The notes under the pieces were generated by a model, which saw only the letters and a program-made list of their open reading frames with translations, was not told where the DNA came from and made no database searches. This document shows positions 1-27,516 of a stretch of DNA of 34,851 bases, piece after piece (position 1 is the stretch's first letter; every line of letters begins with the position of its first letter). The translations under genes and the position numbers were made by a program. The DNA comes from Nemertoderma westbladi (lineage: Eukaryota > Animalia > Xenacoelomorpha), in contig JAUCBJ010007033.1 in assembly GCA_032718475.1 (NCBI GenBank), forward strand, positions 1-34,851, in the 5' to 3' direction.

Positions 1-2105
1 GTAATATTAGTCCGTTGTGCAGTATAATTATTTAGATAAGGCACAGTGCGGTGACATTTAGGTAAGGAAGTTAAAACGCCCATATATTTTGCATCCATCC
101 ATTTTGTATAGTATGTAGCCCTACCTACGTAATTTTGTATTAGGATATATGTAGATAGTCCCAGGGTAGCAAGTTTATTCGGACCCTGGATTTCGTGCTT
201 GCTGATATTAGCATCAGTAGGGCTATCATATAGGGACGCTGTCCTGGCCATTCAGCGGCCAGGGACGTGAACCATTACCATATAAGGTAATAATTCGAGG
301 TTTGGGCAGGCAATAGGACTACAATCCGGCCTCCTTATTGGACTAACTGCTTCCAGGTTGGTTTAATGCTAGCACGGACTGGAGAGCCAATGGGAGAGCG
401 ATTGAGTCACCTTATTGCATCACCCCATCCGGATCACCTATAAATTGGCGGTGTGCCGGTAGAACCTATATGTTCATGCTGTTAATACTGTATACCCTTA
501 CTTATCACATGACACACCCCTGTTACAATTTACTTGCTGAGCTGTCTCTAATTTTGTATTAGGATATCGTATTTTCTGCAATTTGCTAATTTTGATTAAT
601 TTCTTGGAATGATTTGCTAGTGCGATTACTTTGCTTGTGTTTCTCAATAATTCCTTCGATTGCTGCTAATTACAATTGAACTATGATTTCTACCCTTTGA
701 TTAATGGTTCTATGTGATTCCTTTCTGCGCAATAATCCTAAGGGATTTCTGAGACTGTCAGACTTTGTGATTTGCATGCGCCGCTACGGTAGCTATTAGC
801 ATCATGGAGGGCTAAGGTGCCAGTGGGCGGTGGGCGCATCGGGGGGTTGAGCGACTAGGAGAGAGCGGAGGATTCAAAGTGGGCAACGCTGGCCAGGGTC
901 ACCGTTGCGGGCGGGTATCTTGCACTGCGGCACGCAGACCAATCGCTGGTACAGTATCTAGGGGGCTGATGATCCAGGTTTTGTCTCTATTTAGTATTAA
1001 GGGGGCAGGAATTGGGTTAGTTAGGAATCCTAGATGTACCCGAGAGAGGCCTGCGCGTATTACAACGTTGAGTGTGGAGTACGAGTAGTGAATTGCACAA
1101 TTGTAAACTGTGATTTCTAACGCTGATTGGTGTGTTATTGAAGTGTGCCTAAGATTACGAATGCTTAGATAGGCGCTCTTTTCCCTTTGATTGATTTCTA
1201 TTTCTTAGTTACAATAATTAGTTATTGATTAGGTCAAAGTAATACGGCAATTTAGGCTATTACTAGCGAAACCTGTTGCGTGATAAATTAGAATTACGTA
1301 TTCTGGAACTCTTAGTAATTAGTACGCTGTTAAATATTTGTGACTGTAATTAATTAGTAAAAATTAAGAATTAGTACGCAGCATAGCGGAGAGTAGCTAA
1401 GGTAATAATTAGTGTACTGTAAACTATTCACGCTGAGCGGTTATTTGCATTAGCGGGCAATCAGCTAGAACGCACTATTCGGTACGCACGATACGCTAGT
1501 AGTTTTGCTGGCCTAAAGCCAGCCGCGGGCAGTTTTAGACTCGGAGTGGTACTATCCACGTAGAGACAATTACTGTACCATTTTTTGATATTTTAAATAT
1601 TCTCGCATTCACACATTACGTTAGGGAACCTCCAGTATTCGCGATTAGGAAAGACGTAGGTAATAGCGTGCTTTAATAAGTGATAGAATTAGGCGTAAGA
1701 ATACTCTGAGTGCAAGGCCTCTCGCACTCGTCTTAAGTAAGCTTAGGGAGCCGACTCGGGTTTATTGTTTTGGTTATTCCCGCGTGGCTCATAGATTCGA
1801 ACAGTTAGCTCTCTATCGAGCGATCGGTAGAGAAAGGAACAAGCGATTTTGCAGGAGTTGTGTAAAATTAGTAAAATATATTAGCGGACGGCAGATTAGC
1901 GCCATCCAACGGTAAGTAGCGGTTTTGTATTTAGCAACCCTTACAATTTAGTAATAGCACGCTCCTGATCCCCTTTACTTAACAGTAGAGCAGTCTTTGT
2001 GTCTTATTGGATAGGCGAGAGCTTATTAGGTTGGCAGAAGGATATTAACGGGTATTGGTCTGTTCAACAGTTCTGCTGTTAGTATAGAGGTCGCGGTTGT
2101 TTATC

Positions 2106-5100
2106 ATATGGGTTTATGGGGTATTATATATTTATAGGATATGGGTTTATGGGCGTATTATATATTTATAGGATATGGTTTTATGGGGTATTATATATTT
2201 ATAGAATATGGGTTTATGGGGTATTATATATTTATAGGATATGGGTTTATGGGCGTATTATATATTTATAGGATATGGGTTTATGGGTGTATTATATATT
2301 TATAGGATATGGGTTTATGGGCGTATTATATATTTATAGGATATGGGTTTATGGGCGTATTATATATTTATAGGATATGGGTTTATGGGCGTATTATATA
2401 TTTATAGGATATGGGTTTATGGGGTATTATATATTTATAGGATATGGGTTTATGGGTGTATTATATATTTATAGGATATGGGTTTATGGGGTATTATATA
2501 TTTATAGAATATGGGTTTATGGGTGTATTATATATTTATAGGATATGGGTTTATGGGCGTATTATATATTTATAGGATATGGATTAATGGGCGTATTATA
2601 TATTTATAGGATATGGGTTTATGGGCGTATTATATATTTATAGGATATGGGTTTATGGGCGTATTATATATTTATAGGATATGGGTTTATGGGCGTATTA
2701 TATATTTATAGGATATGGGTTTATGGGCGTATTATATATTTATAGGATATGGGTTTATGGGCGTATTATATATTTATAGGATATGGGTTTATGGGTGTAT
2801 TATATAATTATAGGATATGGGTTTATGGGGTATTATATATTTATAGAATATGGGTTTATGGGGTATTATATATTTATAGGATATGGGTTTATGGGCGTAT
2901 TATATATTTATAGGATATGGGTTTATGGGTGTATTATATATTTATAGGATATGGGTTTATGGGCGTATTATATATTTATAGGATATGGGTTTATGGGGTA
3001 TTATATATTTATAGGATATGGGTTTATGGGGTATTATATATTTATAGGATATGGGTTTATGGGCGTATTATATATTTATAGGATATGGGTTTATGGGCAT
3101 ATTATATATTTATAGGATATGGGTTTATGGGCGTATTATATATTTATAGGATATGGGTTTATGGGCGTATTATATATTTATAGGATATGGGTTTATGGGT
3201 GTATTATATATTTATAGGATATGGGTTTATGGGCGTATTATATATTTATAGGATATGGGTTTATGGGCGTATTATATATTTATAGGATATGGGTTTATGG
3301 GCGTATTATATATTTATAGGATATGGGTTTATGGGCGTATTATATATTTATAGGATATGGGTTTATGGGCGTATTATATATTTATAGGATATGGGTTTAT
3401 GGGTGTATTATATATTTATAGGATATGGGTTTATGGGCGTATTATATATTTATAGGATATGGGTTTATGGGCGTATTATATATTTATAGGATATGGGTTT
3501 ATGGGCGTATTATATATTTATAGGATATGGGTTTATGGGCGTATTATATATTTATAGGATATGGGTTTATGGGGTATTATATATTTATAGGATATGGGTT
3601 TATGGGGTATTATATATTTATAGGATATGGGTTTATGGGCGTATTATATATTTATAGGATATGGGTTTATGGGCATATTATATATTTATAGGATATGGGT
3701 TTATGGGCGTATTATATATTTATAGGATATGGGTTTATGGGCGTATTATATATTTATAGGATATGGGTTTATGGGTGTATTATATATTTATAGGATATGG
3801 GTTTATGGGCGTATTATATATTTATAGGATATGGGTTTATGGGCGTATTATATATTTATAGGATATGGGTTTATGGGCGTATTATATATTTATAGGATAT
3901 GGGTTTATGGGTGTATTATATATTTATAGGATATGGGTTTATGGGGTATTATATATTTATAGAATATGGGTTTATGGGGTATTATATATTTATAGGATAT
4001 GGGTTTATGGGCGTATTATATATTTATAGGATATGGGTTTATGGGCGTATTATATATTTATAGGATATGGGTTTATGGGCGTATTATATATTTATAGGAT
4101 ATGGGTTTATGGGCGTATTATATATTTATAGGATATGGGTTTATGGGTGTATTATATATTTATAGGATATGGGTTTATGGGCGTATTATATATTTATAGG
4201 ATATGGGTTTATGGGCGTATTATATATTTATAGGATATGGGTTTATGGGCGTATTATATATTTATAGGATATGGGTTTATGGGCGTATTATATATTTATA
4301 GGATATGGGTTTATGGGCGTATTATATATTTATAGGATATGGGTTTATGGGTGTATTATATATTTATAGGATATGGGTTTATGGGGTATTATATATTTAT
4401 AGAATATGGGTTTATGGGGTATTATATATTTATAGGATATGGGTTTATGGGCGTATTATATATTTATAGGATATGGGTTTATGGGTGTATTATATATTTA
4501 TAGGATATGGGTTTATGGGGTATTATATATTTATAGGATATGGGTTTAGGGGGTATTTTATATTTATAGAATATGGGTTTATGGGGTATTATATATTTAT
4601 AGGATATGGGTTTATGGGGTATTATATATTTATAGGATATGGGTTTATGGGGTATTATATATTTATAGAATATGGGTTTATGGGGTATTATATATTTATA
4701 GGATATGGGTTTATGGGGTATTATATATTTATAGGATATGGGTTTATGGGGTATTATATATTTATAGAATATGGGTTTATGGGGTATTATATATTTATAG
4801 GATATGGGTTTATGGGGTATTATTTATTTATAGGATATGGGTTTATGGGCGTATTATATATTTATAGGATATGGGTTTATGGGTGTATTATATATTTATA
4901 GGATATTGGTTTATGGGGTATTATATATTTATAGGATATGGGTTTATAGGTGAATTATATATTTATAGGATATGGGTTTATGGGGTATTATATATTTATA
5001 GAATATGGGTTTATGGGGTATTATATATTTATAGGATATGGGTTTATGGGGTATTATATATTTATAGGATATGGGTTTATGGGCGTATTATATATTTATA

Positions 5101-6052
5101 GGATATGGGTTTATGGGTGTATTATATATTTATAGGATATTGGTTTATGGGGTATTATATATTTATAGGATATGGGTTTATAGGTGAATTATATATTTAT
5201 AGGATATGGGTTTATGGGGTATTATATATTTATAGAATATGGGTTTATGGGGTATTATATTTTATAGGATATGGGTTTATGGGGTATTATATATTTATAG
5301 GATATGGGTTTATGTGGTATTATATAGGATATGGGTTTATGGGGTATTATATATTTATAGGATATGGGTTTATGGGGTATTATATATTTATAGAATATGG
5401 GTTTATGGGGTATTATAAATTTATAGGATATGGGTTTATGGGGTATTATATTTTATAGGATATGGGTTTATGGGGTATTATATATTTATAGGATATGGGT
5501 TTATGTGGTATTATATAGGATATGGGTTTATGGGGTATTATATATTTATAGGATATGGGTTTATCGGGTATTATATATTTATAGAATATGGGTTTATGGG
5601 GTATTATATTTTATAGGATATGGGTTTATGGGGTATTATATATTTATAGGATATGGGTTTATGTGGTATTATATAGGATATGGGTTTATGGGGTATTATA
5701 TATTTATAGGATATGGGTTTATGGGGTATTATATATTTATAGAATATGGGTTTATGGGGTATTATATATTTATAGGATATGGGTTTATGGGGTATTATTT
5801 ATTTATAGGATATGGGTTTATGGGCGTATTATATATTTATAGGATATGGGTTTATGGGTGTATTATATATTTATAGGATATTGGTTTATGGGCGTATTAT
5901 ATATTTATAGGATATGGGTTTATGGGCGTATTATATATTTATAGGATATGGGTTTATGGGCGTATTATATATTTATAGGATATGGGTTTATGGGTGTATT
6001 ATATATTTATAGGATATGGGTTTATGGGGTATTATATATTTATAGGATATGG
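2106..6052 (+). repeat. Minisatellite, 33/34-bp unit GATATGGGTTTATGGG(G/CG/TG)TATTATATATTTATAG, about 118 copies, inside a TRAF intron
   Basis: Directly visible tandem array. The last unit runs into the TRAF exon (tttatag|GATATGGAC). Confidence 0.98.
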
Positions 6053-6194
6053 ACAACCACTTGAATACTGAATGCGGATCTTCCGTAATGGATTGTATAT
6101 TCCGCGATTTCGGATGCGGCGAATCGTTTACAAGAGATAAATTCAACCAGCATGTTCGAGCCAAGGGGTTGGAGCATTTAAACCATCTAGCAAG
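6046..6194 (+). CDS. TRAF4: TRAF-family gene, internal exon encoding the end of a TRAF-type zinc-finger region
   Basis: Not in the ORF track. tttatag|GAT ATG GAC translates to DMDNHLNTECGSSVMDCIFRDFGCGESFTRDKFNQHVRAKGLEHLNHLA, matching the H..EC...CxFxxxGC...H...H pattern. Donor AG|gtcggt is phase 2, matching the next exon. Upstream exons were not found in the window. Confidence 0.85.
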
Positions 6195-6400
6195 GTCGGT
6201 TAAATTGTGTGTCGGTTAATTTTATGGGTGTCGGATATTTGTGGGTGTCGGGTCATTTTTGAGTGGCTTGTTTCTGAGTCTGCCGACATTGGCGATCACG
6301 TCTGTACTGTAGGTAGGGCCTACTGAATGTAGGTAGGTTCAGTGAGTTGTCGGTTATTGTCAATAAGAATTAGACATACTTATATTTTAATGTTTCACAG

Positions 6401-6500: not shown

Positions 6501-7389
6501 GTAATAAACAATTTATTCATTCAAGGTACTAATGATTATCCTAGATATATTAAGGGGGGGGGGGGGGGGGGGTGTGTAGTAGTAGCTTGTAATATAATCA
6601 ATAAGTCCGTTGTATTGTAAATGTTGTCTAGACCAAGGCACAACTAAACCAAGTGGTTGCTATAATTAAGGAGACCATTACCCCAATCTACTTTTTTTTT
6701 ATATATAAAGCTTATGAGAACTGATGAGTTTGGATAACTTCGTAAACCCTATGTTCGGGCTATATTTTGCGTAACATGTATTTTGAGATAGACAAAGGGT
6801 TGCAGTTCGGTTGTATCGGTAATCGGTTGTAGAAGATCTAAATGGCCATGTTTTACAAAACATTGAAAAACACAAAACATTGAACGCATTAGACAACACC
6901 ACCAGGACGGATCCTGAGAAAGCCCGCCGCTGTATTGGGGCGAAACCTACCGATCAGCTGTCTGCAGTCAGCTGATCACTGAATACATGCATGTCTGGGT
7001 CTCCAGTCGTTTTTTTATTTACTTGTAGTTGTACAATGTACATACCAACCGGTACGGTTTTTTACTATTAGTAGCTTGATGTGAAATATAAATAAAATAT
7101 TATTAGAAACTTTTCAAGCTTTCCTTACTACTGGTTTTACAAAACCAATACTACAGTAACGATTGTAGCCCAAAAGCTGATGAACATGTTGAAGTATAAG
7201 TTTGATGGAAATTGAAAGAAAAATTAAAAAAAAGTAGTAGGGAATTTAGGCATGACAAAGTCTAAAACGACAAACTGAGTAAAAGGCTGCGCATTTCACT
7301 TCCGTTGAGGTTAATAGTCCCCTTAAATAATTTGCAGAAATTTAAGAGTTATATAAATAATTAATTATAAAAATGTATTTTACAAACAG

Positions 7390-7881
7390 GACAAACATTA
7401 CGGAAGTCAGATGGTATGGAGGATCGAGAAAGTAGACGAAAAGATGAAGTTGGCTGAGACCGGAGAGAAGTTAACGATCTTCAGTCCGCTGTTCTCGTCA
7501 GCGCGTCGCGGATACAAACTAATCGCGAGTCTGTGTCTCAACGGTGACGGAAAGTACTGCGGACAATTCGTAGCGGTTTACGTGTACGTATGTAAAGGAG
7601 AGTACGACTCCATACTGAAATGGCCGTTCCAGAACCAAATCACAATTAAATTATTCGATCAGTCGGAGAATTCTAACAAAGCTGTTGTTAAAAAATTGAA
7701 TCCTGTCGATTTATTAGAAGAACACCAAAGCTGTTTCACAAAACCGCCAAGAGATAAAAATCCACCATTCGGTCTCATTGCGTTTATTCCTAAAGAAGAT
7801 TTCCAAGAAGGAACTTTTATTAAAGACAATACTATGTATATCAGTTTCAACATAGATACTGAAAATACTCCGTTTCTATAA
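7390..7881 (+). CDS. TRAF4: TRAF-family gene, terminal exon encoding the TRAF-C/MATH domain (TRAF4-like)
   Basis: aaacag|GAC AAA CAT; motifs VWRI, FSPLFSSARRGYKL, LNGDG, GEYDSILKWPF, LFDQ, FIKDNTMYI; stop TAA at 7879-7881. The TRAF4 subfamily call is inferred from the GYKLxxSxxLNGxG motif. Confidence 0.92.
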   Translation, partial: DKHYGSQMVWRIEKVDEKMKLAETGEKLTIFSPLFSSARRGYKLIASLCLNGDGKYCGQFVAVYVYVCKGEYDSILKWPFQNQITIKLFDQSENSNKAVVKKLNPVDLLEEHQSCFTKPPRDKNPPFGLIAFIPKEDFQEGTFIKDNTMYISFNIDTENTPFL

Positions 7882-7918
7882 ACCTTATTATTGCAGGAGG
7901 AATAGCCTTAATGAGGGG

Positions 7919-9160
7919 TGTAATGCATTACGTAATGGTGTTATTGAAGATATACGCATTGTGTAATGGTGTTATTGAATGTACGCATTGTGTAATGGTG
8001 TTATTGAATGTACGCATTGTGTAATGGTGTTATTGAATGTACGCATTGTGTAATGGTGTTATTGAAGATATACGCATTGTGTAATGGTGTTAGTGAAGGT
8101 ATACGCGATGGTGTAATGGTGTTATTGAAGATATACGCATCGTGTAATGGTGTTAGTGAAGGTATACGCGATGGTGTAATGGTGTTATTGAAGATATACG
8201 CATTGTGTAATGGTGTTATTGAATGTACGCATTGTGTAATGGTGTTATTGAATGTACGCATTATGTAATGGTGTTATTGAATGTACGCATTGTGTAATGG
8301 TGTTATTGAAGATATACGCATTGTGTAATGGTGTTATTGAATGTACGCAATATGTAATGGTGTTATTGAATGTACACATTGTGTAATGGTGTTATTGAAT
8401 GTACGCATTATGTAATGGTGTTATTGGTGGAGTAATGCATGTGTAATGGTGCTATTGAAGGTATACGCGATGGTGTAATGGTGTTATTGAAGATATACGC
8501 ATTGTGTAATGGTGTTATTGAATGTACGCATTGTGTAATGGTGTTATTGAATGTACGCATTGTGTAATGGTGTTATTGAAGATATACGCATTGTGTAATG
8601 GTGTTAGTGAAGGTATACGCGATGGTGTAATGGTGTTATTGAAGATATACGCATTGTGTAATGGTGTTAGTGAAGGTATACGCGATGGTGTAATGGTGTT
8701 ATTGAAGATATACGCATTGTGTAATGGTGTTATTGAATGTACGCAATATGTAATGGTGTTTTTGAATGTACACATTGTGTAATGGTTTTATTGAATGTAC
8801 GCATTGTGTAATGGTGTTATTGGTGGAGTAATGCATGTGTAATGGTGCTATTGAAGGTATACACGATGGTGTAATGGTGTTATTGTTGATTGCATGTGTA
8901 ATGATGTTATTGGAGATATACGCATTGTGCAACGGTGTTAGTGAAGGTATACGCGATGGTGTAATGGTGTTATTGAAGATATACGCATTGTGCAACGGTG
9001 TTAGTGAAGGTATACGCGATGGTGTAATGATGTTATTGGAGATATACGCATTGTGCAATGGTGTTATTGAAGGTACGCATTGTGTAATGGTGTTATTGAA
9101 GGTATACGCGATTGTGTAATGGTGTTATTGGTGATGTAATGGATGTTGTATAATGGTGTC
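7919..9160 (+). repeat. Minisatellite with 29-32-bp units (TGTAATGGTGTTATTGAATGTACGCATTG and variants) directly after the TRAF stop codon
   Basis: Visible tandem array with recurring variant units. Confidence 0.95.
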
Positions 9161-12303: not shown

Positions 12304-12817
12304 CTGATGGGTCAATAAACATATATATTAATCTACTAGAGACTTGGTAGGGGTGTGTGCTGTGTAGTAGGTGTAACAATTTTAATGACTCGAGCTCTTT
12401 TAAACTCGGGAGGGAGAGAAGGCGGGCAAAAATTGAGAGACAATAAAATGCTACCGGTAGAGGAATATTTTGATTTTAAACAAGAGCAAACCGGATTTAT
12501 GTAGGGCCTAATTGACAACATTTTGTAAATTTTATATTTACACGATAATACCAAAAAGCCTTTTTCTTCATCGAAAACATAAAACAAATAAAACAAAGAG
12601 TTGATTGTAACGTAACGTTGGCGCAAACCATAAATAAAGCAGTAATTTAACCCTAACCCTAAGTCATGAGGCTCTAATCTAATAAATTTGTGGAATTTCG
12701 GACTTTTTGCTATTGGCCCGATGCGCCTATACCGGTCATGATGTCCAAAATTCCACAAACTTCCTCTAGATGGATAAGTAGGCCTATCCAGCTATCCCTG
12801 TATCCCCGTAATCTCAC

Positions 12818-12939
12818 CTTCTTCTGTAGAGCATATAAAATACAAGCAACAACCCGGCCAATATTATCACATTCAATGGAGCGAATATTCCTGTTCCCCA
12901 TGTAGAACCGTCATCGACTTCTTTCTTTTCATTATCCAT
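12818..12939 (-). CDS. PGRMC1: PGRMC/MAPR coding exon 1 (N-terminal transmembrane anchor)
   Basis: MDNEKKEVDDGSTWGTGIFAPLNVIILAGLLLVFYMLYRR; PLN plus hydrophobic helix typical of PGRMC; donor AG|gtgaga. The four exons total 561 nt (186 aa plus stop), in frame. Confidence 0.88.
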
Positions 12940-12940
12940 T

Positions 12941-14209
12941 TTCCACGAAGCTAAGGAAAATCAACTACTTTCGCTAAGAAAGATTTTCCTTAGCTGAGAT
13001 GGTCTATTCATAGTGGGCTATTTTACTTGTGTGGGGCAGATTTGTTTTTTTTTGGTCGGGGAAAAAACTAGCCTTTAAAAGTACCCTGAAATTTTGCATG
13101 TATATACTACTCATCAAGGCGCGTCGTGTGGGATGGGTCTCATATTCAGGAAAAATCTGGTTTCCATGGCAACGGACTTAGAAAAAAGTCTATGTATTTC
13201 AAGTCAATATTTGTAACTCTATTTGTAGGAAAACTATAATACATATAAACTTGGGGTTTCTCAACACAACTATAAGGTCCATAGCAGAGCCGATTGAGGT
13301 TAAATAGAAAATCCAGTTACCTTGGCAACCGGGCTAAACAGATGTTAAAATTTTTAAAATGTTAATTTGAAGCCTAAGGTTAAGGTGTGATGACTTGGGA
13401 CCAATCCCTACCCCCACTATATAACTTATTCTGCGTCCGAATTTGATTGTTCTATTTTGCAGTTACCTTGACAACCGCTGAAAACAGATGTTTTTATACG
13501 AAAATTATTCATTTGTACATAGACTTCACGATAAAATTTTACGAAACTAGGTATGTGTTATCTGGACCACTAGTTGGAACTTTTAGTGAAACTCAAAACA
13601 TTCCAGAAATATCTAGTTACCATGGTAACTGTAGTTTTTTTAAAGTTATATATCATTCAAGTCTATAATCATAACTCTATTTGGAGAAAAACTGTAATAT
13701 ATATAAACTTGGGGTTTTGCAACTCATCTATAAGGTCCATATACAAGCCGTTCGAAGTTAATTAGAAAATCCATTTACCATAGCAACAAGAGTAAACAGA
13801 TGTTAAAATTAATAAAATGATAATTTGAAGCACAATTTAATAGTATTATGACTTGGGACCAACACCTACCCCCACTATATGACTTATTCTGCATCCGAAT
13901 TACATTGTTCTATTTTTCAGTTTCCATGACAACCACTGCAAACAGATGCATTTTGATAGAAAATCTGTAATTTGGACATAAACTACAATATTTTCTGAAA
14001 CTCGATGTGTTATCTGAAAAACAATCTGGACTGAATCTTTTTTCAAAGGTAAAACCAACAGTTCCAGAGAACTCTAGTTTCCATGGGAATAGAAGTTATT
14101 TATTGGCAAATGCTACTAAACTAGGCTAAGCAACGAACCAAATTGTGGCCGTTTGTTTAATTTTCCTTAGCTTCGTGGTTGCATTTCCTTTAGGAAATGC
14201 CTTTCTAGT
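12941..14209 (+). mobile_element. Non-autonomous Helentron-associated element (HINE/DINE-1-like), copy 1
   Basis: 18-bp subterminal inverted repeats CCACGAAGCTAAGGAAAA (12943-12960) and TTTTCCTTAGCTTCGTGG (14161-14178). Also a partial IR near the 5' end, a 3' hairpin GCATTTCCT-TT-AGGAAATGC, end CTAGT, a T-rich insertion site, no TSD and internal degenerate tandem repeats. Confidence 0.8.
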
Positions 14210-14298
14210 ATTTTAGGCCTATTTAAAAAATTACTACGAATTGTAAATTTTAAATTACTACAAAACACTTTTGGTATTTTCTCATACAGCTGTACACT

Positions 14299-15995
14299 AT
14301 CCACGAAGCTAAGGAAAATCAACTACTTTCGCTAAGAAAGATTTTCCTTAGCTGAGATGGTCTATTCATAGTGGGCTATTTTACTTGTGTGAGGCAGATT
14401 TGGTTTTTTTTGGTCGGGGAAAAAACTAGCCTTTAAAAGTACCCTGAAATTTTGCATGTATATACTACTCGGCGAGGCGCATCTTTAGGGCCGGGTCTCA
14501 TATCCAGGAAAAATCTGGTTTCCATGGCAACGGACTTCAAAAAAAGTCTATGTATTTCAAGTCAATATTTATAACTCTATTTGTAGGAAAACTATAATAG
14601 ATATAAACTTGGGGATTCGCAACACAACTATAAGGTCCATAGCAGATCCGATTGAGGCTAAATAGAAAATCCAGTTACCTTGGCAACCGGGATAAACAGA
14701 TGTTAAAATTTATAAAATGTAAATTTGAGGCCTAAGGGCAAGGTGTTATGACTTGGGACCAACCCTTACCCCCACTCAGCCACTATATAACTTATTCTGC
14801 ATCCGAATTACATTGTTCTATTTTTTAGTTACCATGACAACCGCAGAAAACAGATGTTTTTATACAAAAATTATTCATTTGGACATAGACTTCGCGATAA
14901 AATTTTACAAAACTGGGTATGTGTTATCTGGACCACTAGTTGGAACTTTTAGTGAAACTTAAATTATTCCAGAAATTTAGTTACCATGGTACAGTCAGGA
15001 ACACTGGTCACAATATGTCCAATTTACAGCCAGAATGTGTCCGCGGAAAACGCTCTCAGAGTGAAATTTCTCCATAGAAAACAATGCTAAATTTCATTTG
15101 AAAACCGGCAGTGAAATTTTAACATTGGCATTCTAAAAATTATGCCATTAGAATCGCCATAAAATTCTGTATAAATTAATTTGAGAATTAGAATCTCATC
15201 ATTGGGATAACTATCATAATATTAAAAATGAAAATGTGCCCAGCTTCTGCTTTGAGTACTATTGGAGTTACAGCCAAAATATGTCCGGAAATATAATCGC
15301 AGCCTGTGAAGGACAAATAGTGGCTGCGCGGACACTTTCTGGCTGTAAATATGTGGACAATTTTTGGCTGAGCTTCAGCCAGAAAGTGACCAGTGTTCCT
15401 AACTGTGGTAACTGTAGTTTATTAAACTCTATATCATTCAAGTCTATATTGATAACTCTATTTGTAGCAAAACTGTAATATATATAAACTTGGGGTTTTG
15501 CAACTCATCTATAAGATCCATATCCAAGCCGTTTGAGGCTAATTAGAAAATACAGTTACCATAGCAACAAGTCTGAACAGATGTTAAAATTTATAAAATG
15601 ATAATTTGAAGTACAAGTTAATAGTATTATGACTTGGGACTAACCCCTACCCCCACTATATGACTTATTCTGCATCCGAATTACATTGTTCTATTTTTCA
15701 GTTTCCATGACAACCACTGCAAACAGATGCATTTTGATAGAAAATCGGTAATTTGGACATAAACTACAATATTTTCTGAAACTCAGTATATGTGTTATCT
15801 GAACCACAATCTGTACTGATTTTTTTTTCAAAGGTTAAAGCAACAGTTCCAGAGAACTCTAGTTTCCATGGGAATAGAAGTTAATTTATTGACAAATGCT
15901 ACTAAACGAGGCTAAGCAACGAACCAAAGTGTGGCCGTTTGTTTAATTTTCCTTAGCTTCGTGGTTGCATTTCCTTTAGGAAATGCCTTTCTCGT
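14299..15995 (+). mobile_element. HINE/DINE-1-like element, copy 2 (interrupted by a MITE)
   Basis: Highly similar to copy 1, with the same subTIRs and hairpin; ends CTCGT. Carries a 414-bp insertion at 14992-15405. Confidence 0.8.
14992..15405. mobile_element. MITE with CAG..CTG termini and 5-bp TSD (TGGTA); superfamily unassigned
   Basis: TIRs CAGTCAGGAACACTGGTCAC and GTGACCAGTGTTCCTAACTG; TGGTA at 14987-14991 and 15406-15410. The empty site GTTACCATGGTAAC is present in HINE copy 1. Confidence 0.92.
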
Positions 15996-16821
15996 AGAGG
16001 AGACCTACTACTGCTGTACTGTACTACAGTTTATTAACTCAGACCTAACATATAAATCCCTTCGATACTGACAGACTGATAGTTTAACGTGCTGAATCAG
16101 TCAGCATTCAGGCATTAGGCCTATACAGTTACTGAGTTCAATGACTGAATGATAGGTTCTCTTTATCTTGGCTTATTACCAGATTACCGGTCAGCCGGTC
16201 CAGTTAAGTTATTCTCTAAATTCTTATTACCGGTACCAATTCTTGAAGGAAGACAGATTATCCGATGATCAATATCGTTAACCTTCTATTATTCTTTTTG
16301 TCGGTAGGCTATTCATCAATCAGGCTGCCAGGAAGTCTGATGGCCTAGTTTAGATTAGACTCAAGGGGGACAAAATCTGCGCGAAGGCAGGAAGGGACAA
16401 TACAGCAATATCCGATATCTGCTACCGGTAGAAGATTTTTCCCACGGCCAACGGCTGCCCGGTCAAAATATGCGGTGGATAATTTCGCCATGTTCTGATG
16501 TTTGCAGGCTGGCAGGTATGATACGATATACTAACTTGAAGGGGGGGATTAACGTGTTTAGGGGCCTCCACAGTCCACATATAAGTAACAGACTGACAGA
16601 CAGACAGAGTAATACACTGATATACGTCAACACGTCATAAACCAATTGCTGAATTGAGGGAAAGGAGCAGGCAGGCAGGTTACAGAATACAGAGCAGTAG
16701 AGGCAGGCTTTTCTAACCAAAACAATAAACGGCCACTTAACCAATTGAGGGAAAGGAGCAGGTTACAGAACACTGCAAAAGTCCAGTCAGTACTAGGCCT
16801 AACTGCAGTTCCAGAGTTCAG

Positions 16822-18898
16822 CAGTTTAGAACACTGGCTGACTGATCACTTTCTGGCTGAAGCTCAGCCAAAAATTGTCCAAATATTTACAGCCAGAAAG
16901 TGTCCGTGCAGCCAATATTTGTCCTTCACAGGTTGCGATTATATTTCCGGGCATATCTGCATATTTTGGCTGTAAATCCACTAGGCCTAGTCCTCAAAGC
17001 AGAAGCTGCTAGGCTGGGCACATAATGTGACCATTTTTTATTTTTAATATTAATAATCTGATAATAGTTATCCCAACGCACCCCTGGTTTAAAAAGCTTT
17101 TAGTGTCATGAAAAATACCGTAAAATCTGTGACTGCCAGCTCTTATATAATGGTCTGCATAGCAAAAAAAAATATTTTTTAAAATATTTTATCGAGCTCC
17201 TTTTTTTAGCACCTAAAAATGTGTTCTAGAACATTTTTTCGGTGGTGTGCGGAGTTGTCGAATTTAGGTATCTTGAATACTGATTCCTTATATTTAGCCA
17301 TTATATGCGAAATTCGCTCAGGATTTCAAATCTGCAAACAGTTTCATCATATCTTGTTTAGTTTTCAAGATATCGTGAAAAATGTGATGCGCATCCAAAA
17401 AGTGCGTGTGGCGCCAAATTTTCAATTTTCAGTAATTTGAAATATTCACTAAAAAATGAAAATTATCGATTTCTATAGGTTTTCGGCGATGCTGAATGCA
17501 ATGGTAATATTTTCCAGAAGGCTGGGTGAATTGTCATACTACTTTTCATTGGGTGCTGAAATTTGGAAAATGAAAATCAAATTTTCAACCATTGGAAATT
17601 TTCAATATAAAGCTCTGATTTACGATTTATTAAGGTTCTGTGTGTTGCTGAATGTAACAGTAATGTTTTCTAAATAAGTGGATTACTGTGTAAACAATTT
17701 TTACTAAACTGTCTAAAAAATGTGATAAGATATAATTTAATTCCTAATTCATACGTTTGTATTATTACTGTCATCCTACTTATATATTCTAAAATATTTC
17801 AAAACACAATACTTCGATTAATTATCTTTATGTATTTTTATTAAACTTTTATGAATATTTATATAACTTTTACAAAGTTTTGTATAACTTTTAGAACTTT
17901 TCTGACTTTTTTCGGATTTTTCTATAACCTTTAGAAAATTTTATACCGCTTTTAATACATGTTTTGAAAATTATTATATAACTTTTGGTAATTTTTATAC
18001 AGCTTTTGCTAACGAATATGATGCTTAGGGAGACATTATATACATAGTAAACCAGTTATCCAGAAAATAATACTGTAGCATTCAAAACCATACAAAACCT
18101 AAAAAAATAGCTAATCATAGGTTTAAACGGGATATTACAAAACTTGTAAAATTTGTCATTTTTGTTTTTAAAATTTCAGCACCCAATGAAAAGTAGCACA
18201 AAAATTCACTCAGACTTTTGGAAAATATTACCATTGCATTCAGCATGGCAGAAAACCTATATAAATCGATAATTTTCATTTTTTAGTGACTATTTCAATT
18301 TACTGAAAATTGAAAATTTGGCGCCGCACGCACTTTTTGGGTGCGCATCACATTTTTCACGATATCTTGAAAACTAAACAAGATATGATGAAACTGTTTG
18401 CAGATTTGAAATCCTGAGCGAATTTCGCATATAATGGATAATATAAGGAATCAGTATTCAAGTTACCTAAATTCGACAACTCCGCACACCACCGAAAAAA
18501 TGTTCTAGAACACATTTTTACGTGTTAAAAAAAAGGAGCTCGATAAAATATTAAAAAAAATATTTTTTTTTGCTATGCAGACCATTATATAAGAGCTGGC
18601 AGTCACAGATTTTACGGTATTTTTCATGACACTAAAAGTTTTTAAAACCAGGGGTGAACGATGAGATTCTAATTTACAAATTAATTTATACAGACTGACA
18701 GAATTTTATGGGGATTCTAACTGTCTACTGGTCTAAGGGCGTAATTTTTAGAATGCCAATGTTAAAATTTCACTGCCGGTTTTCAAATGAAATTTAGCAT
18801 TGTTTTTCAATGGAGAAATTTCACTCTGAGAGCGTTTTCCGCGGACACATTCTGGCTGTAAATTGGACATATTGTGATGTGACCAGTGTTCCTGACTG
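16822..18898 (-). mobile_element. Second, inverted copy of the CAG..CTG MITE, split by a nested element and carrying many small insertions
   Basis: 16822-17078 and 18657-18898 align to the reverse complement of 14992-15405. Confidence 0.88.
17079..18656. mobile_element. Non-autonomous foldback DNA transposon with CAC..GTG ends, 4-bp TSD (AACG) and ~500-600-bp TIRs; Chapaev/CMC-like
   Basis: CACCCCTGGTTT...AAACCAGGGGTG; AACG at 17075-17078 and 18657-18660. The arms are near-identical for ~500 bp. Superfamily is inferred from termini and TSD length only. Confidence 0.88.
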
Positions 18899-19584
18899 AA
18901 TGCACGTACAGTACTGGTACAGTACCAGTGGAGGTCCTGAAACACGTTAGTCCTACTTCAGCAGTTCAGTACCGGTACTTGCAGTAATCAATCACCGACA
19001 ATGCTGCAATGGCAGAACAGCAGAATGGAATGGCAGAATGGACTAGTTCAGCTTCAGGTTGTCAGATGTTAGGGTTAGCCTTAGCTGGTTACTGGGTTAG
19101 CGGCACCAGACCAGCACCCAGCAGACAGCGGGAATAATGCAGTACATGCAGTTTTTGCAGTACAGCAGTAGGCTATTACTACGGTACTGCTGTACTCTGG
19201 TACTGTACTAGAACATAGACAGATAGAGTAAGGTGATATCATCAAATCAGAATAGTCAGTGATTTTTTATGTCCTTTTATTTGACTTTTTTTGTCCTTTT
19301 TTTTACGAATTATGCATAATGACTTTTGTTGTCCTTTTAATGACTTTTATTGTCCTTTTAATGACTTTTATGTATGTATTTCTTCAAACTGTCAGACTGC
19401 TGATTTCTGGACTGTCAGACAGTGATTTCACCATGGCTGTGCCAAAACATTCCATGATTCCATGATTTATAGACTATGAGATAGATTTCCATATGCGCCT
19501 GTGGTAAAAAGACTCTATATTTAATAGTTTGTGGTTGTTGTCGATAATCGATTACGACATGACGTAGCAAAACACTCATTTTAT

Positions 19585-20377
19585 AGCCCAAAACAATTAC
19601 CAATTGATGGAAAGGAGCAGGTTAAGGCCGAGTTTTCTAACCAAAACAATAAACAGTCACTTTACCAAATCAGGGAAAGGAGCAGGTTACAGAGACGGGA
19701 TTTTCTAACCAAAACAATAAACGATCACTTAACTAATTGAGGGAAAGGAGCAGGTTACAGAGGCGGGATTTTCTAACCAAAACAATAAACGATCACTTAA
19801 CTTATTGAGGGAAAGGAGCAGGTTACAGAGGCGGGATTTTCTAACCAAAACAATAAACGATCATTTAACTAATTGAGGGAAAGGGACAGGTTACAGAGGC
19901 GGGATTTTCTAACCAAAACAATAAACGATCACTTAACTTATTGAGGGAAAGGAGCAGGTTACAGAGGCGGGATTTTCTAACCAAAACAATAAACGATCAT
20001 TTAACTAATTGAGGGAAAGGGACAGGTTACAGAGGCGGAATTTTCTAACCAAAACAATAAACGATCACTTAACTAATTGAGGGAAAGGAGCAGGTTACAG
20101 AGGCGGGATTTTCTAACCAAAACAATAAACGATCATTTAACTAATTGAGGGAAAGGGGCAGGTTACAGAGGCGGGCCTTTCTAACCAAAACAATAAACGG
20201 TCACTTTACCAATTCAGGGAAAGGAGCAGGTTACAGAGGCGGGATTTTCTAACCAAAACAATAAACGATCATTTAACTAATTGAGGGAAAAGGGCAGGTT
20301 ACAGAGGCGGGATTTTCTAACCAAAACAATAAACGATCATTTAACTAATTGAGAGAAAGGAGCAGGTTGCAGAGACG
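19585..20377 (+). repeat. 68-bp tandem repeat, about 11-12 copies
   Basis: Unit AATTGAGGGAAAGGAGCAGGTTACAGAGGCGGGATTTTCTAACCAAAACAATAAACGATCACTTAACT. About two further degenerate units lie at ~16638-16770. Confidence 0.95.
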
Positions 20378-20590
20378 ATAAAACTACAGTAATAGGCCTA
20401 AATTATGTGAAAGGTATATCCACATTTTCCACAATCCTGCAATCCAGTTTGGCCTATCAATTATTTAAAATTTATTAGCACAACCGGTAGGCCTACCATT
20501 ACCGTATTTAAATGGTAGGCTACACAGTAGGCCTATATCAGTACCGGTGCCGGTACTAAAATACAGAAATACCTGCTTTATACCTACATC

Positions 20591-20851
20591 TACGGTGGCT
20601 GAAAGCGGCCAAACAATATTAATTAAGCGTTTTTTTTTTTTAATTTCAACCCGGGTTGAAAATAATATCAACCCGGGTTGAAAATAATATCAACCCGGGT
20701 TGAAAATAATATCAACCCGGGTTGAAAATAATATCAACCCGGGTTGAAAATAATATCAACCCGGGTTGATATTACTGTATTTTCAACCCGGGTTGAAATT
20801 TAAAAAAAAAAACGCTTAATTAATATTGTTTGGCCGCTTTCAGCCACCGTA
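20591..20851. mobile_element. MITE with TACGG..CCGTA termini and 6-bp TSD (TACATC), IS3EU-like, with internal 22-bp repeats
   Basis: TACATC at 20585-20590 and 20852-20857; ~70-bp TIRs; seven copies of the palindrome TCAACCCGGGTTGA. Confidence 0.85.
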
Positions 20852-22025
20852 TACATCTGTACATACAAATATACAATACGCAGCAAATTAGTGCTATATA
20901 TACTAATACCGGTACTGATAGCCTGAGAGAACAGCAGTAGAGAAACCGGTAGCATGGAACCTAACATTAGACTTTTGGAGGACATAAAAAATAAAAAAAA
21001 AGGACAAAAAAAGGATTTATAAACGGACAATAAAAATTATTGCGATTCATGAATTCAATGTTAAAACAGATTTGAATTTACCGCCAAAATATAGGTGGTA
21101 GATCTGATCTGCCAAACTTCAGCCCTTCGGGTATATCTTTTGCGTAGAGGTATAGCCTACATAGAGGCTTCATGTAGGTATGTGTAGCCTACATGTAGAT
21201 GCACGTGTAGGGTGAATGTAGGTAGGTGTAGTCCCATAGATATTAATGTAATTTATGTGTCAACTTGCAGTAACGTGATACACGGTCGTCAATCAGGATG
21301 TATGGCAATAATCTCTGATCTCCACGGTACAATACGGTACATCAACATGCAGACCTGTCTGCTGTCAGACAACAGGTTTTACTGCATACTGCAGTACTGT
21401 ATAAATATCAAACATCGCGTTCTGATTATACTAAAGTCCCTTACTCGTCATAAATATTATGCCCTAATAAATTTGAGTATGCTAACGCCACGAAAGGCAT
21501 TGTTCCATTAGATTAACTCGTTCTGATTTATATGTTTATTGAGTAAGAGTAACCTAAACAAGAATAACAGCCATCATCGCGGGGACTATAGTCTACCAGA
21601 AACCCTGACCCCCCTCTGCCCCTCTTTATCTATTTATCAACCATACATCCATGGGACTTGAACAGTACTTCAGCATTGAAATGTTTTGGACGTTTTGTTT
21701 TGAAAGTAAAAATATAGAAGTCTGGAAGTTTTGTTTGTTTTAATTTTTCAGGCAGTCACATTCCACCAACCAGCAACAGTCCCATCCCTTCCCACTATCC
21801 CGCGGACCACCACACTGTTTCATTATAAAGTATTCCCATCTCGATTATGGGAATTAATCAGTAATCCGATGGGATTCAAATCCCATCTCGAAGTAACAGC
21901 AAAACAATAACACGAAAAGTCAATAGCTTTACAGTTATATTTGATTGCATTGAAAGTTAATAGAAAGAAGAAGTTAAATTGCATATCCATTAAAATATCA
22001 TGAAATTGATACGGCAGTTTAGTAG

Positions 22026-22027
<2 letters not shown>

Positions 22028-22056
<29 letters not shown>

Positions 22057-22845
22057 TTTATAAAGCGCCTTTCTAAGCACTATTTCAAGGCGCTGTGTAG
22101 TGTATGTGTTGGTATGTACTGCGTGTACGTAGGTATTTTCTATAAAAACTGGCTAAAGAACACTAAAAACATAAGTAAAAAAAAACACAATCAAGTAAAA
22201 AGTTAGAACTATTTTAAAAAATTGCTTCAGCAATATTCCTGTACATAATAGTGAGTTTTCAGTTTTTCTTTAAAAATACCAAGGGTACTGGCCAGGCGTA
22301 TGTCTTTAGGTAAGGAATTCCAAATGCGAGGTGCCGCAACAGAGAACGCGCGCCTTCCATAGCTCTCAAGGTTGTATCGGGGTACAACCAATAATCCCTC
22401 ACCGCCCGAACGTAAGTCCCTCCCGGGTGTATATCGCTTGAGCAGTTCGCAGAGATAGCCCGGCGCGGTACCGTTCCAGCACTTGTATGACAACATAGCT
22501 AATTTATATTCAATACGCCTATTAATTGGGAGCCAGTGGAGGCGTTTCAGTACTGGGGTTATGTGCTCGCGCTTTCTAATACCTTCTAACATTCGCGCTG
22601 CTGAGTTCTGTACATATTGTAATTTCTTAATGTATTTATCAGGTAAACCATAGTAGAGTGAATTATTGTTGTCCAATTTATTTGTTATAAATGCATGTAT
22701 TAATATTTCCAATTCACATCTAGATAAATATCGCTTTATTTTAGAAAGGTTGCGTAGATGGAAGAAGGCGTCTCTAACTACGGTTGATATCTGATTTTTG
22801 AATGTTAGGTGAGAGTCAAAGAGGAAGCCAATGTTACGAGCATTG
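22028..22845 (-). mobile_element. 5'-truncated L2-clade LINE (C-terminus of ORF2, 3' stem-loop, (ATT)n tail)
   Basis: ARNIGFLFDSHLTF, LIHAFITNKLD..NSLYYGLP, LQYVQNSAAR, HITPVLKRLHWLP, RAFSVAAPRIWNSLP. The 3' end on the minus strand is AGCGCCTTGA..AAGGCGCTTTATAAATATTATT... Confidence 0.92.
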
Positions 22846-22985
22846 AAACGGCCACAGCAAGATTTATAAAATGAAAAATAAGTAAAATCAGCACAGCACA
22901 CAATATTATCAATATAGACATTGAAGACAATTTAATAAACAAATACTATAAAAAAATATCTACTAACAATCAATACATGATATAT

Positions 22986-23202
22986 CTCTGAGAGTGGAAA
23001 GGATATCCACCATTTTACGTCTAGGATGGATGGAGTGGAAAGGAGTTCCACCATTCTACCTCTAGGATGGATGGAGTGGAAAGGATTTCCATCATTCTAC
23101 CTCTAGGATGGATGGAGTGGAAAGGATTTCCACCATTCTACCTTTAGGATGGATGGAGTGGAAAGGATTTCCACCATTTTACCTCTAGGATGGATGGAGT
23201 GG
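22986..23202 (+). repeat. 41-bp minisatellite (about 5 copies) flanked by a 14-bp direct repeat
   Basis: Unit GAGTGGAAAGGATTTCCACCATTCTACCTCTAGGATGGATG; AATACATGATATAT at 22972-22985 and 23203-23216. Confidence 0.9.
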
Positions 23203-23884
23203 AATACATGATATATATAATATATATAATATATAGGCCTATACATCAGCGACTACCATCGCCACTCTGGTTCAATCAGTCAGTCCGGTATCATTGTTAG
23301 CGTTTTGTTGAATTACCCACTCATCCTCAGACCCTCATGGACACCGACGACGAGCTCTAACCGTAACCGTTAGTCGATTCCTCCTTGACTGGAAACATCA
23401 GGCTGTCAGGTTCGGGCCGTTCGGCCCATACAAAGTCATTAGCCTCCATGCCTGAACCCGCAGGATCATAAGATCTACAGTATGTATCGGTATATCGTTC
23501 AGTCGTTTTTTCCTTTGTCAGTACTGTAGTATTGATAGGCTCCGTCTCGTGGGTATTCAGGGGACCCCCATTCGACGTATTCGCATCTCCTCCTGGTTGT
23601 TTCGGGTACCACCGCCCGCCATATGCGCATCTCTTCGTGGTTGTTCCGGGTACCGCCCCCGTTCGCCGCATTCGCATCTCATCGAGGAAGTTCGGGTCCG
23701 GGTACCCCGTGTAGGCCTATTCATTCATCATTGTTGTTTTTAAAGACCTACCTACATTCACCCTACACGTGCATCTACATGTAGGCTACACATACCTACA
23801 TGTAGCCTCTATGTAGGCTATACCTCTACGCAAAAGATATACCCGATATACGATATATATATATACGATATATATACGATATGA

Positions 23885-24790: not shown

Positions 24791-25118
24791 CCCCAGCCCT
24801 TCCCTTTCCAGTACAAATTACATGTCTTTCAATAATTTGAACCCTATGGAGCAGGGTGAGGGTGGCACCTTTTAGGGACTTGTATACCGGTACTGTACCG
24901 GTAGCTTTGTATCCAGGAAGGTGGGGTCTGCCAGGTAGGCCTACTGCTGACACTGTTGTATCAGGCTGCAGGGCTGTACTGCTGTACTTCAGTACTTGTC
25001 TGTAAGATTTAGTGTGACGATCTACGGTACAGATCTACAGCATTTCTGTCGTGACTCGTCAGCTCGTGACCGTCACGTCATGTAATGCTGAGGCTGACAC
25101 TTATACTGCTGTACTGAC

Positions 25119-25685
25119 ATGGAGGACGATACTGACATGGAGGACGATGCGATTGTTCAAGATGCCTTGCAAGTAATCTTCGGATTGGGCGGCGAAACGG
25201 CCCATAAGCGATTGGAATTTGAGTTGCCCCCCAACCGACCGGATTCCCCGTCTACCGGCACCCCCGGGGAGGATGTGTTGCCTCGGTTCTGCTCGGCGAA
25301 AGAAAACAATAATGATGAAACCAAAGCAACGGACCCCGGGTCAGTAAAATGTTGTCCCCCACAGGAGGTCTCCGCTACGACTACGATAAGCTGTCGTCCC
25401 CCTATCGAACTTCCCCCCTCTAGTAAACTCTCTATATCCTTACACAACGTCGTCTCCACATTCAGCTGCCGTTGCCACCTCAACCTGCGTCGCATAGCGA
25501 CCGAGGCCACCAACGTGGAGTACCGCCCCGAGATGGGTCGTGTAATAATGCGTCTCAAACAGCCGAGAACTACGGCGCATTTAGTGAGTTCCGGGAAGAT
25601 CACTTGTACCGGGGCCGTATCGGAAGATGGTGCTAGGCGAGGGGCCCGGAAAGTCGCCGTTCTTCTAAAACGGTTGGGCTTCAAG
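25119..25685 (+). CDS. TBPL1: TBP-like factor (TRF2/TLF), coding exon 1
   Basis: ISLHNVVSTFSCRCHLNLRRIA..NVEY...VIMRLKQPRTTA..SSGKITCTGA.SE..ARR.ARK.A..LKRLGFK (first TBP repeat, TRF2 type); donor AAG|gtaagt, phase 0. Confidence 0.93.
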
Positions 25686-26009
25686 GTAAGTCTATCCTCC
25701 ACATCTGACCTCCATCTGTCCGAAGTGTCAGATCATATGGCAGCCATATTACTGTATTACAGTATTATGGCTGTATGGCACTTACTGGATTAGGCCTATC
25801 TGATTATCAGATTCATTTATTATAGGAAGGGATCTAGGGGTCTTAACCTCGAATGATAAGTTCATTTTACCTAAAATAACTTATCTTTCAGTCTTTTATT
25901 GGCGCAATTGTAGGACTAATCCCATCACATGCGTACTTTTTAACCGGGAAGTGTACAAATTTAGGAATCGCGTAATTTATCTTGAAATTAATATCTCATA
26001 TCTCTCCAA

Positions 26010-26052
26010 ACCACGTACGCGTTTCGACCTTACTGGGTCTCATCAGCGTGGT
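26010..26052 (-). ncRNA. Minimal type-I hammerhead ribozyme (minus-strand copy)
   Basis: Exact reverse complement of 26470-26512. Its upstream B box is mutated (GGTTCTAATCC); the A box at 26098-26108 is intact. Confidence 0.85.
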
Positions 26053-26413
26053 GTCGGATTAGAACCTGGGACCTCGATGTGGAAGCCGAGACTACAACCA
26101 CTAGGCCACAGGTTCTTGAGATATGGAGTATTAATTTCAAAGCCAGCTGACATTTTATTAGCCCCTGATTTTTTATTATTGATAGTAACAATGTGTTGGC
26201 AAGCTGTATTTTTCGAAGATAAGTTATTTTCGGTAAAATGAACTTATCATTCGAGGTTAAGACCCCTAGATCCCTTCCTATAATAAATGTATAATAACAA
26301 ACACCTCGAAAAATACAGCTTGCCAACACATTGTTACTATCAATAATAAAAAATCAGGGGCTAATAAAATGGCAGCTGGCTTTGAAATTAATACTCCATA
26401 TCTCAAGAACCTG

Positions 26414-26466
26414 TGGCCTAGTGGTTGTAGTCTCGGCTTCCACCTCGAGGTCCCAGGTTCGAATCC
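26414..26466 (+). promoter_or_regulatory. tRNA-like internal Pol III promoter (A box and B box)
   Basis: A box TGGCCTAGTGG at 26414-26424 and B box GGTTCGAATCC at 26456-26466, with tRNA-like spacing. There is no 3' acceptor strand, so this is not a tRNA gene. Confidence 0.8.
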
Positions 26467-26469
26467 GAC

Positions 26470-26512
26470 ACCACGCTGATGAGACCCAGTAAGGTCGAAA
26501 CGCGTACGTGGT
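26470..26512 (+). ncRNA. Minimal type-I hammerhead ribozyme
   Basis: Stem I ACCACG/CGTGGT; core CTGATGA (26476-26482); stem II GACC-cagtaa-GGTC; GAAA (26497-26500); palindromic mini stem III ACGCGT; cleavage triplet GUA, cut predicted after 26506. Confidence 0.88.
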
Positions 26513-27210
26513 TTGGAGAGATATGAGATATTAATTTCAAGATAAATTACGCGATTCCGAAATTTGTACACTTCCCGGTTAAAAAGTACGCATGTGATGG
26601 GATTAGTCCTACAATTGTGCCAATAAAAGATAAGTTATTTTCGGTAAAATAAACTTCAGAACTTATCATTCGAGGTAAAGACCCCTAGATCCCTTCCTAT
26701 AATAAATGTATAATAACAAACACCTCGAAAAATACAGCTTGCCAACACATTGTTACTATCAGATTCATGGCACAGTCTGACAGTTTAAACTCACCCCTGC
26801 ATTTCTCGATTTTCACTCTGTGCAAATTCATCCCCGGTTAAATTTCCTTACCGGTAGTATATTCTCACTCCCTGTGTATTTTTTTGTATCTTCTACAGTA
26901 TATACTTATACAAATCTCAAGCATGTGTTTGTCTGGGTGCTAGAGGTATCTGTGGTCTTAACTGTATTGGATTAACTTAACTTATATCGAATTTAGTTAA
27001 TATTGAAATTAAAATATCATGGGGGTGAGAATACACCGAGGGGGGTTAAATTTCACTAAAAAATCACCCAGAGTAGTTTCACCCCCGGTTAAAATGCCCT
27101 AGTGAATTTTAAGGGGGTGGAAATTATCTGTTACACCTACACCGGCCCCAGGGGCATATAATATATGCTTTATTTATTTGCTTTATTTCTTTTTTTATTT
27201 ACTTTTTAAG

Positions 27211-27516
27211 ATCCGCTTTATCAATTATCGCGTTGTTAACGTTCTCGCGAGCGTCGCCATGCCTTTTGGCGTGAAACTCGCTCCGTTCACCACCGCCAAT
27301 CGCACCATCGCGCGGTACGAGCCGGAACTCCATCCCGGGGTCACAGTCACTCTCAAACAGCCGGACTGCCGCGCAACACTCAAGGTCTTCTCTACCGGAA
27401 GTGTGACAGTGACGTCACGTCGTGTGAGTGACATCGGAGTCGCGGTCGAGAGAGTCTACCCGTTACTGGCGTTACATCGGAGAGACAAACAGTTGGAATC
27501 TAATTTGGATAGATAA
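27211..27516 (+). CDS. TBPL1: TBP-like factor (TRF2/TLF), coding exon 2 (last)
   Basis: tttttaag|ATC CGC gives IRFINYRVVNVLASVAMPFGVKL...YEPELHPGVT...ATLKVFSTGSVTVT. VVNVLA, YEPELHP and FSTGS distinguish TRF2 from TBP. Total length 290 aa. Confidence 0.93.
   Translation: MRFINYRVVNVLASVAMPFGVKLAPFTTANRTIARYEPELHPGVTVTLKQPDCRATLKVFSTGSVTVTSRRVSDIGVAVERVYPLLALHRRDKQLESNLDR

Follow-up and report, generated by a model that had tools for sequence, protein, structure and literature searches.

Gene-less transposons are classified mainly by two keys, the length of the target duplication and the sequence of the element ends: Repbase files them by duplication length and end positions 1–11 (PMC4455052), and Dfam provides end profiles for 64 categories (PMC7805219). 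The scar left at exit is a third key, which reports the cutting chemistry. Tc1/mariner transposons leave 3′ overhangs, Hermes (hAT) and Transib form donor hairpins, and the footprint of Tol2 is listed as variable (PMC8151067). The canonical footprint of Sleeping Beauty is cag or ctg (PMC5224488). The duplications of IS630-Tc1-mariner elements are TA "in general", and those of Ginger2 are 4 or 5 bp (PMC10045372). The groups hAT5 and hAT6, from an animal lineage that includes Blackjack, have duplications of 5 and 6 bp, respectively (PMC12730594, where the original report of hAT5 is cited as Kapitonov and Jurka 2007). In Transib, CAC is invariant at the first three bases and the targets are GC-rich (PMC1131882), while among the PHIS elements NuwaI duplicates CWG and NuwaII has a 5-bp site (PMC4482050).

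The window analysed here is a stretch of 34,851 nucleotides from Nemertoderma westbladi (contig JAUCBJ010007033.1). It is animal-type DNA, with exons lying amid tandem arrays and nested repeats, and it contains a MITE that is bounded by CAG..CTG ends and has duplicated 5 bp of its target, as well as dozens of short N5-CAG/CTG-N5 words that have the form of excision scars. As judged from its sequence, it is likely that this MITE resembles Tc1/mariner at exit and differs from it at entry; it is assigned here to no family.

Structure of the MITE and Its Empty Site

MITE copy 1 (14992..15405, + strand) is 414 bp long and has no recognisable coding remnant; Pfam analysis of its open frames of at least 58 aa gave no match. 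The left terminal inverted repeat (14992..15011, + strand) starts with CAGT, whereas the right one (15386..15405, − strand) shows ACTG at the + strand end. End comparison revealed that the left end, CAGTCAGGAACACTGGTCAC, is identical at 19 of 20 positions to the reverse complement of the right end. The subterminal region (15016..15381) contains, counted on both strands, six copies each of the short motifs CAGCCA and TGTCC, which, by their sequence and position, are likely to be transposase binding sites.

The element is flanked by a 5-bp target duplication, TGGTA (left copy, 14987..14991; right copy, 15406..15410; both + strand), as indicated by the ends, the empty site and the contigs of public sequencing runs. 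It interrupts copy B (14301..15996, + strand) of a 1.27-kb host repeat, the copy A of which (12943..14210, + strand) is 93–94% identical over the aligned letters. Alignment of the two copies revealed a single TGGTA in copy A (13623..13627, + strand), with the alignment in register on either side of this empty site. The name HINE-like was given to the host repeat in the original prediction, and it is presumably apt, judging by general HINE features. Both tandem copies, A and B, consist of two internal units of ~455 bp that are 76–80% alike, and have subterminal inverted repeats and a 3′ hairpin; their summed depth in the runs is very high.

Five public runs contain part of the region 12900–19000; two of them (X1 and X3) come from a single sample, and another (X2) includes a 670-letter contig identical to the window, so that it is perhaps not independent of it. 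None of the public runs listed for this region is an RNA run. In four out of four runs, contigs join 14986 to 15406, skipping 419 letters (414 + 5), and the five letters fit either side. These joints may represent other copies of the highly repeated host repeat instead of alleles. Thus, the CAGT-starting ends and the 5-bp duplication with an empty site in the paralogous repeat, both of which had been proposed from the letters of the window, were borne out, and the element at 14992–15405 shows each of the features expected of a MITE: terminal inverted repeats, a duplication with an empty site, and a short, non-coding and repeated body.

The target length of 5 bp was measured at one insertion, that of copy 1, the flanks of copy 2 being too altered. 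An alternative division of the same letters, namely ACAG ends with a 3-bp duplication, is allowed at the copy 1 site, since the first letter of TGGTA is T and the last is A. The base before CAG is T in copy 2; among the loose ends listed in the runs, it is G at a five-contig loose end, and two single contigs have a G after CTG and an A before CAG, respectively. The A/T in question is therefore absent at three of the four other element ends visible, the ACAG/3-bp reading was dropped, and the MITE end is taken to be CAG and the duplication 5 bp. The variant ends in run contigs point to several subfamilies. The summed depth of the MITE in the runs reaches thousands, compared with ~12–40 for single contigs nearby, a figure that is not a copy number. 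A contig of one run (X4) omits 352 letters of the MITE middle (15017–15370) and represents a deletion derivative of ~64 bp with both ends kept.

N5-CAG/CTG-N5 Scars

Scars were counted in 20,950 non-tandem bases of the window, with the tandem-array stretches (2001–6200, 7901–9160, 19591–20400, 20631–20810 and 27401 to the end) left out, and the expectation was derived from 100 dinucleotide-preserving shuffles. Exact five-base repeats separated by 3 nt were found 133 times in total, and in 49 of these cases the spacer is CAG (25) or CTG (24). The 49 N5-CWG-N5 words, some of which overlap or nest and are not all independent, compare with 0.47 expected (shuffle maximum, 3), which is an approximately hundredfold excess; when low-complexity 5-mers were dropped, 42 remained versus 0.48 expected. 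Repeats of other lengths around CWG number 7 (2.3 expected) for 4 bp, 1 (0.1) for 6 bp and 2 (0.0) for 8 bp, as compared to 49 (0.5) for 5 bp. Between five-base repeats, CCG/CGG spacers were found 0 times (0.4 expected), the spacers CATG, CAGT/ACTG, CAGCTG and CAnTG 0 times each, and CA/TG spacers 7 times (2.2 expected; shuffle maximum, 9). Single C or G spacers, which are in part other palindromic words, occur 21 times versus 6.75 expected, and this counts against the reading preferred below. Scars with one mismatch (30 versus 7.4 expected) suggest that older, decayed scars are also present.

The duplicated 5-mers vary widely, with 42 different sequences among the 49, and their G–C content of 38% equals the background. 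Their target bias is palindromic (nMnKn): in 75 of the 98 symmetrised cases, position 2 is A or C and position 4 is T or G. The one measured target of the MITE, TGGTA, agrees with this bias in part: G at position 2 is seen in only 7 of 98 symmetrised cases, whereas T is the commonest letter at position 4. Only 2 of the 49 scar targets have T as the first and A as the last letter.

Comparison between paralogues identified six scars as insertions, of which five lie within MITE copy 2 and one within host copy B. The one in the host repeat, CCACT-CAG-CCACT (14772..14784, + strand), is an 8-bp insertion in the alignment to copy A. Two further scars were found in other MITE copies within run contigs. 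In the sample represented by two runs (X1 and X3), a contig is 8 letters shorter across 15995–16286, which would be consistent with a polymorphic scar and is left out of the counts.

Other scar-like words are also overrepresented in the non-tandem part of the window: TAGGCCTA (12 observed, 0.33 expected) and TACCGGTA (11, 0.34), as are TACTGTA (11, 1.84), TACAGTA (7, 1.75) and TAGGCTA (8, 1.53). Scars were probably left by several TA-targeting families as well.

The Second MITE Copy and Its Insertions

Comparison to copy 1 revealed a second, degraded MITE copy (16822..18898, − strand), which is split by an unrelated inverted-repeat element of 1578 bp (17079..18656). The ends of the latter are CAC, and it is flanked by a duplication of 4 bp, AACG. 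This nested element, which we take to resemble a non-autonomous Chapaev/CMC element, has long inverted arms and is repeated in the runs.

The two MITE copies differ by 19 substitutions over 414 aligned letters, and all of the ten insertions between them (8, 8, 6, 8, 12, 9, 8, 16, 1 and 5 bases) are on the copy 2 side. Based on the alignment, these include five scars of the form 5-mer/CTG/same 5-mer, one of them with an extra base and two nested in the 16-bp gap. In addition, there are one single-mismatch scar, one plain 5-bp duplication and one change of TA to TAGGCCTA, while the remaining insertions (8, 12 and 1 bases) are left unassigned. CATAT-CTG-CATAT (16952..16964, + strand) and ACAGA-CTG-ACAGA (18690..18702, + strand) were recovered by both the alignment and the scar count and are not in copy 1. 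At ATAAT-CTG-ATAAT (17053..17065, + strand), the 9-letter gap equals the scar plus one extra base, and the two nested scars of the 16-bp insertion lie at 18716..18736 (+ strand), the nesting being read from the sequence. Removal of scars by eye from the copy 2 flanks gave no matching target duplication.

Search for a Transposase and for Allele States

Pfam analysis of all 86 open frames of at least 58 aa outside the tandem arrays yielded only MATH and TBP domains above the cut-off and no transposase, such as the DD(34–41)D/E enzyme of Tc1/mariner; no hAT sequence was found in the same 86 frames. Rfam analysis of 12500–21000 gave 0 matches. The single match of a 20-base end pattern among metagenome contigs, in a bacterial-type contig lacking the partner end, was attributed to chance, as were the 15 matches of a 16-base end pattern among viral contigs, none of which (0/15) had a partner end or any likeness to the MITE body.

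No TGGTA-CAG/CTG-TGGTA allele of the copy 1 site was found among 15 of the 17 joints. The contigs over 15990–19600 contained, among the matches listed, neither an empty copy 2 allele nor an occupied scar allele. The suggestion that the MITE is the source of the scars stands as regards geometry, which matches that of N5-CWG-N5 (49 versus 0.47 expected); among the joints and rows listed, none shows a site in an occupied as well as a scarred form.

Comparison with Known Families

Like the MITE, Tc1-family elements such as Sleeping Beauty have ends that start with CAG, and they leave a cag/ctg footprint between the target copies (PMC5224488, PMC8151067). The Tc1/mariner form of footprint, with 2–3 terminal bases between target copies, is present in the scars, its tie to the MITE being one of geometry alone. 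The target is different: TA in the Tc1 family, a variable 5-mer with nMnKn bias here, and the MITE has a 5-bp duplication (419 letters skipped) in place of the TA duplication of Tc1/mariner. Furthermore, Sleeping Beauty has an IR/DR structure of ~230 bp, in contrast to the 20-bp inverted repeat of the MITE.

The MITE shares with hAT5 the 5-bp duplication, the animal host and short inverted ends. The canonical hAT duplication of 8 bp is not found at the MITE, and 8-bp repeats around CWG number two. The hAT enzymes studied so far excise via donor hairpins and leave variable footprints, and hAT5 itself was compared by description only: no hAT5 end sequences were found in the accessible text of PMC3517528, PMC6004678, PMC3630058, PMC2817418, PMC5753468 and bioRxiv 10.64898/2026.07.01.735963, or in the supplements of PMC8969392, and the supplement of PMC12730594 has no hAT5 entry. 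The likeness to Transib and RAG-like elements consists of the 5-bp length alone, given their CAC ends compared with CAG here, their hairpin excision, and GC-rich Transib targets versus TGGTA and scar targets with 38% G–C. In NuwaI, CWG is the target that is duplicated, whereas in the present scars it fills the gap between the two copies of a variable 5-mer. The site of NuwaII is fixed as CTNAG (C|TNA|G) and its ends are GG, as opposed to the target TGGTA and CAG ends of the MITE. Ginger2 matches the MITE in the length of the duplication, but its ends are TGT instead of CAG.

The original prediction that the element fits no recognised superfamily was too strong, since hAT5 is a published 5-bp group (PMC12730594), and its use of 5-bp duplications as a Transib hallmark was overstated, these being found in hAT5 and in Ginger2 (PMC10045372) too. 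The scar form points to a Tc1-like, hairpin-free cut on a non-TA target, and such a cut, made by neither hAT nor Transib as known (PMC8151067), implies a stronger sign of an unusual system than the duplication length. Among the titles and abstract openings covered, a set that excludes the bulk of subscription papers, of Repbase Reports and of bioRxiv supplements, no description of CAG/CTG footprints at 5-bp targets was found.

Proposed Mechanism and Alternative Explanations

Taken together, the data are best explained by a gene-less cut-and-paste MITE whose ends are CAG..CTG and whose insertion duplicates 5 bp, mobilized by a partner enzyme located elsewhere that makes a Tc1/mariner-like cut and integrates with a 5-base stagger at a loosely specified target; we consider this reading probable. 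The enzyme encoded outside the MITE would cut the transferred strand at the element end. The fixed 3-nt filler corresponds to the terminal three bases of the element placed between the target copies, so that the non-transferred strand would be cut 3 nt inside each end, without a hairpin, and a 3′ CAG overhang would stay on both donor ends. The two overhangs could then pair (C:G, A.A, G:C) with one central mismatch and be joined, and mismatch repair would yield either target-CAG-target or target-CTG-target, a net insertion of 8 bp. At insertion, the target would be cut with a 5-base stagger at loosely specified DNA. The MITE family, or relatives with the same ends, may have written the scars by inserting and excising again and again, with the highest density in a small number of stretches, e.g., 16.0–16.8 kb and either side of the TBP-like exon. 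We infer the cut positions, the repair route, the kind of enzyme and the MITE family as the donor, the last from the shared geometry of MITE and scars. As to the enzyme, opinion is evenly balanced on the IS630-Tc1-mariner type; another or unclassified DDE type appears rather doubtful, a hAT5-like enzyme with altered cutting is unlikely, and the involvement of no transposase at all is very hard to credit.

The MITE could instead be a non-autonomous hAT5 element, with the scars produced either by hAT5 enzymes that nick inside the element or by another family. Published hAT families with 5-bp duplications, belonging to the animal lineage with Blackjack (PMC12730594), and the 5–8 bp range of hAT duplications (PMC4482050) agree with this explanation, and the MITE may already be catalogued as hAT5. 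No hAT sequence was found in the open frames of the window, however, and the scars form a single fixed 3-nt class drawn from the element ends, in contrast to the donor hairpins and variable footprints of known hAT excision (PMC8151067). We therefore regard the hAT5 explanation as unlikely, even though the short inverted ends and scattered subterminal motifs of the MITE recall the layout typical of hAT-like elements. It is less probable still that the MITE is a bystander and that most of the scars stem from some other family that has CAG ends and duplicates 5 bp. In favour of a bystander, no occupied/scarred allele pair was found among the joints and rows listed, the one target of the MITE agrees only by half with the bias of the scars, many scars lie within copy 2 itself, and the variant ends indicate several subfamilies. 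On the other hand, among the inverted-repeat elements listed, the MITE is the only one in the window recognised as combining CAG ends with a duplication of 5 bp, and its summed depth in the runs marks it as highly repeated.

Slippage or a repair quirk unrelated to transposons is a most improbable origin of the 8-bp insertions. Short direct repeats, whatever their size, exceed shuffled levels 2- to 8-fold in the window, and a few scars lie within ACAG-type runs, but the spacer is untemplated by the flank and always CAG or CTG, exactly 5 bases are duplicated in 42 different sequences, and the identical geometry is found in an intact element.

Under the preferred explanation of a MITE cut in the Tc1/mariner manner, the exit scar conflicts with the family suggested by the 5-bp duplication (hAT5 or Transib): either a Tc1/mariner-like enzyme gave up TA, or a hAT subgroup gave up the hairpin. 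Either way, there are implications for the coupling between donor cleavage and target bending in DDE enzymes. In 21 kb, the scars preserve dozens of old target sites, so that target preference and local hot spots are readable from the sequence, and every scar is a frameshifting 8-bp insertion. More tentatively, and with a little less than even confidence, we propose an undescribed animal transposase family that combines Sleeping-Beauty-type excision, with a 3-nt overhang and without a hairpin, with a 5-base stagger at nearly any target, and whose cycles of insertion and excision are among the main drivers of mutation in this genome. If so, copy 2 would have gained at least five 8-bp scars while copies 1 and 2 drifted 19 substitutions apart, and the N5-CWG-N5 word would show, across the genome, where germline transposition took place in the past, even with the elements themselves absent.

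Genomic Setting of the Scars

The scars are unevenly distributed: 16 lie within 16–17 kb and none before 12.7 kb. The densest cluster (16009..16819) contains 15 exact N5-CWG-N5 words in ~810 bp, and density reaches up to ~21 per kb in the clusters at 15990–16830, 18900–19300, 24900–25110 and 25740–25800. In open-frame coordinates, the genes of the window comprise a TRAF/MATH exon (7357–7878) and two TBP-domain exons (25098–25790 and 27106–27513). The matches of the MATH exon in the Atlas are to eukaryotic TRAF-type clusters only, and a protein search with this exon among longer proteins gave no match.

The first TBP-like exon is closely flanked by scars on both sides (24964–25104 and 25747–25766), with none from the first ATG near 25119 to the splice donor near 25686. 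The scar-free coding part would be as expected of frameshifting insertions, and the flanking clusters suggest hot spots where chromatin is open or transcribed. At its beginning, the TBP-like frame includes an 18-bp tandem duplication (25110–25147), with two candidate ATGs in the same frame. A complex inverted duplication (25811–26761) with arms 98% complementary over 325 bp is found in the intron of the TBP-like gene, and its arms hold different N5-CAG-N5 scars, at 25884 and 26652.

Two further inverted-repeat structures were observed in the window. The first, at 20593–20849, is a palindromic MITE with CGG ends, TA flanks and an internal 22-bp tandem array. The other, at 21127–23846, has inverted arms of 101 bp that are 99% complementary and enclose other DNA and a LINE-like reverse-transcriptase tail fragment, located by eye at 22230–22931.
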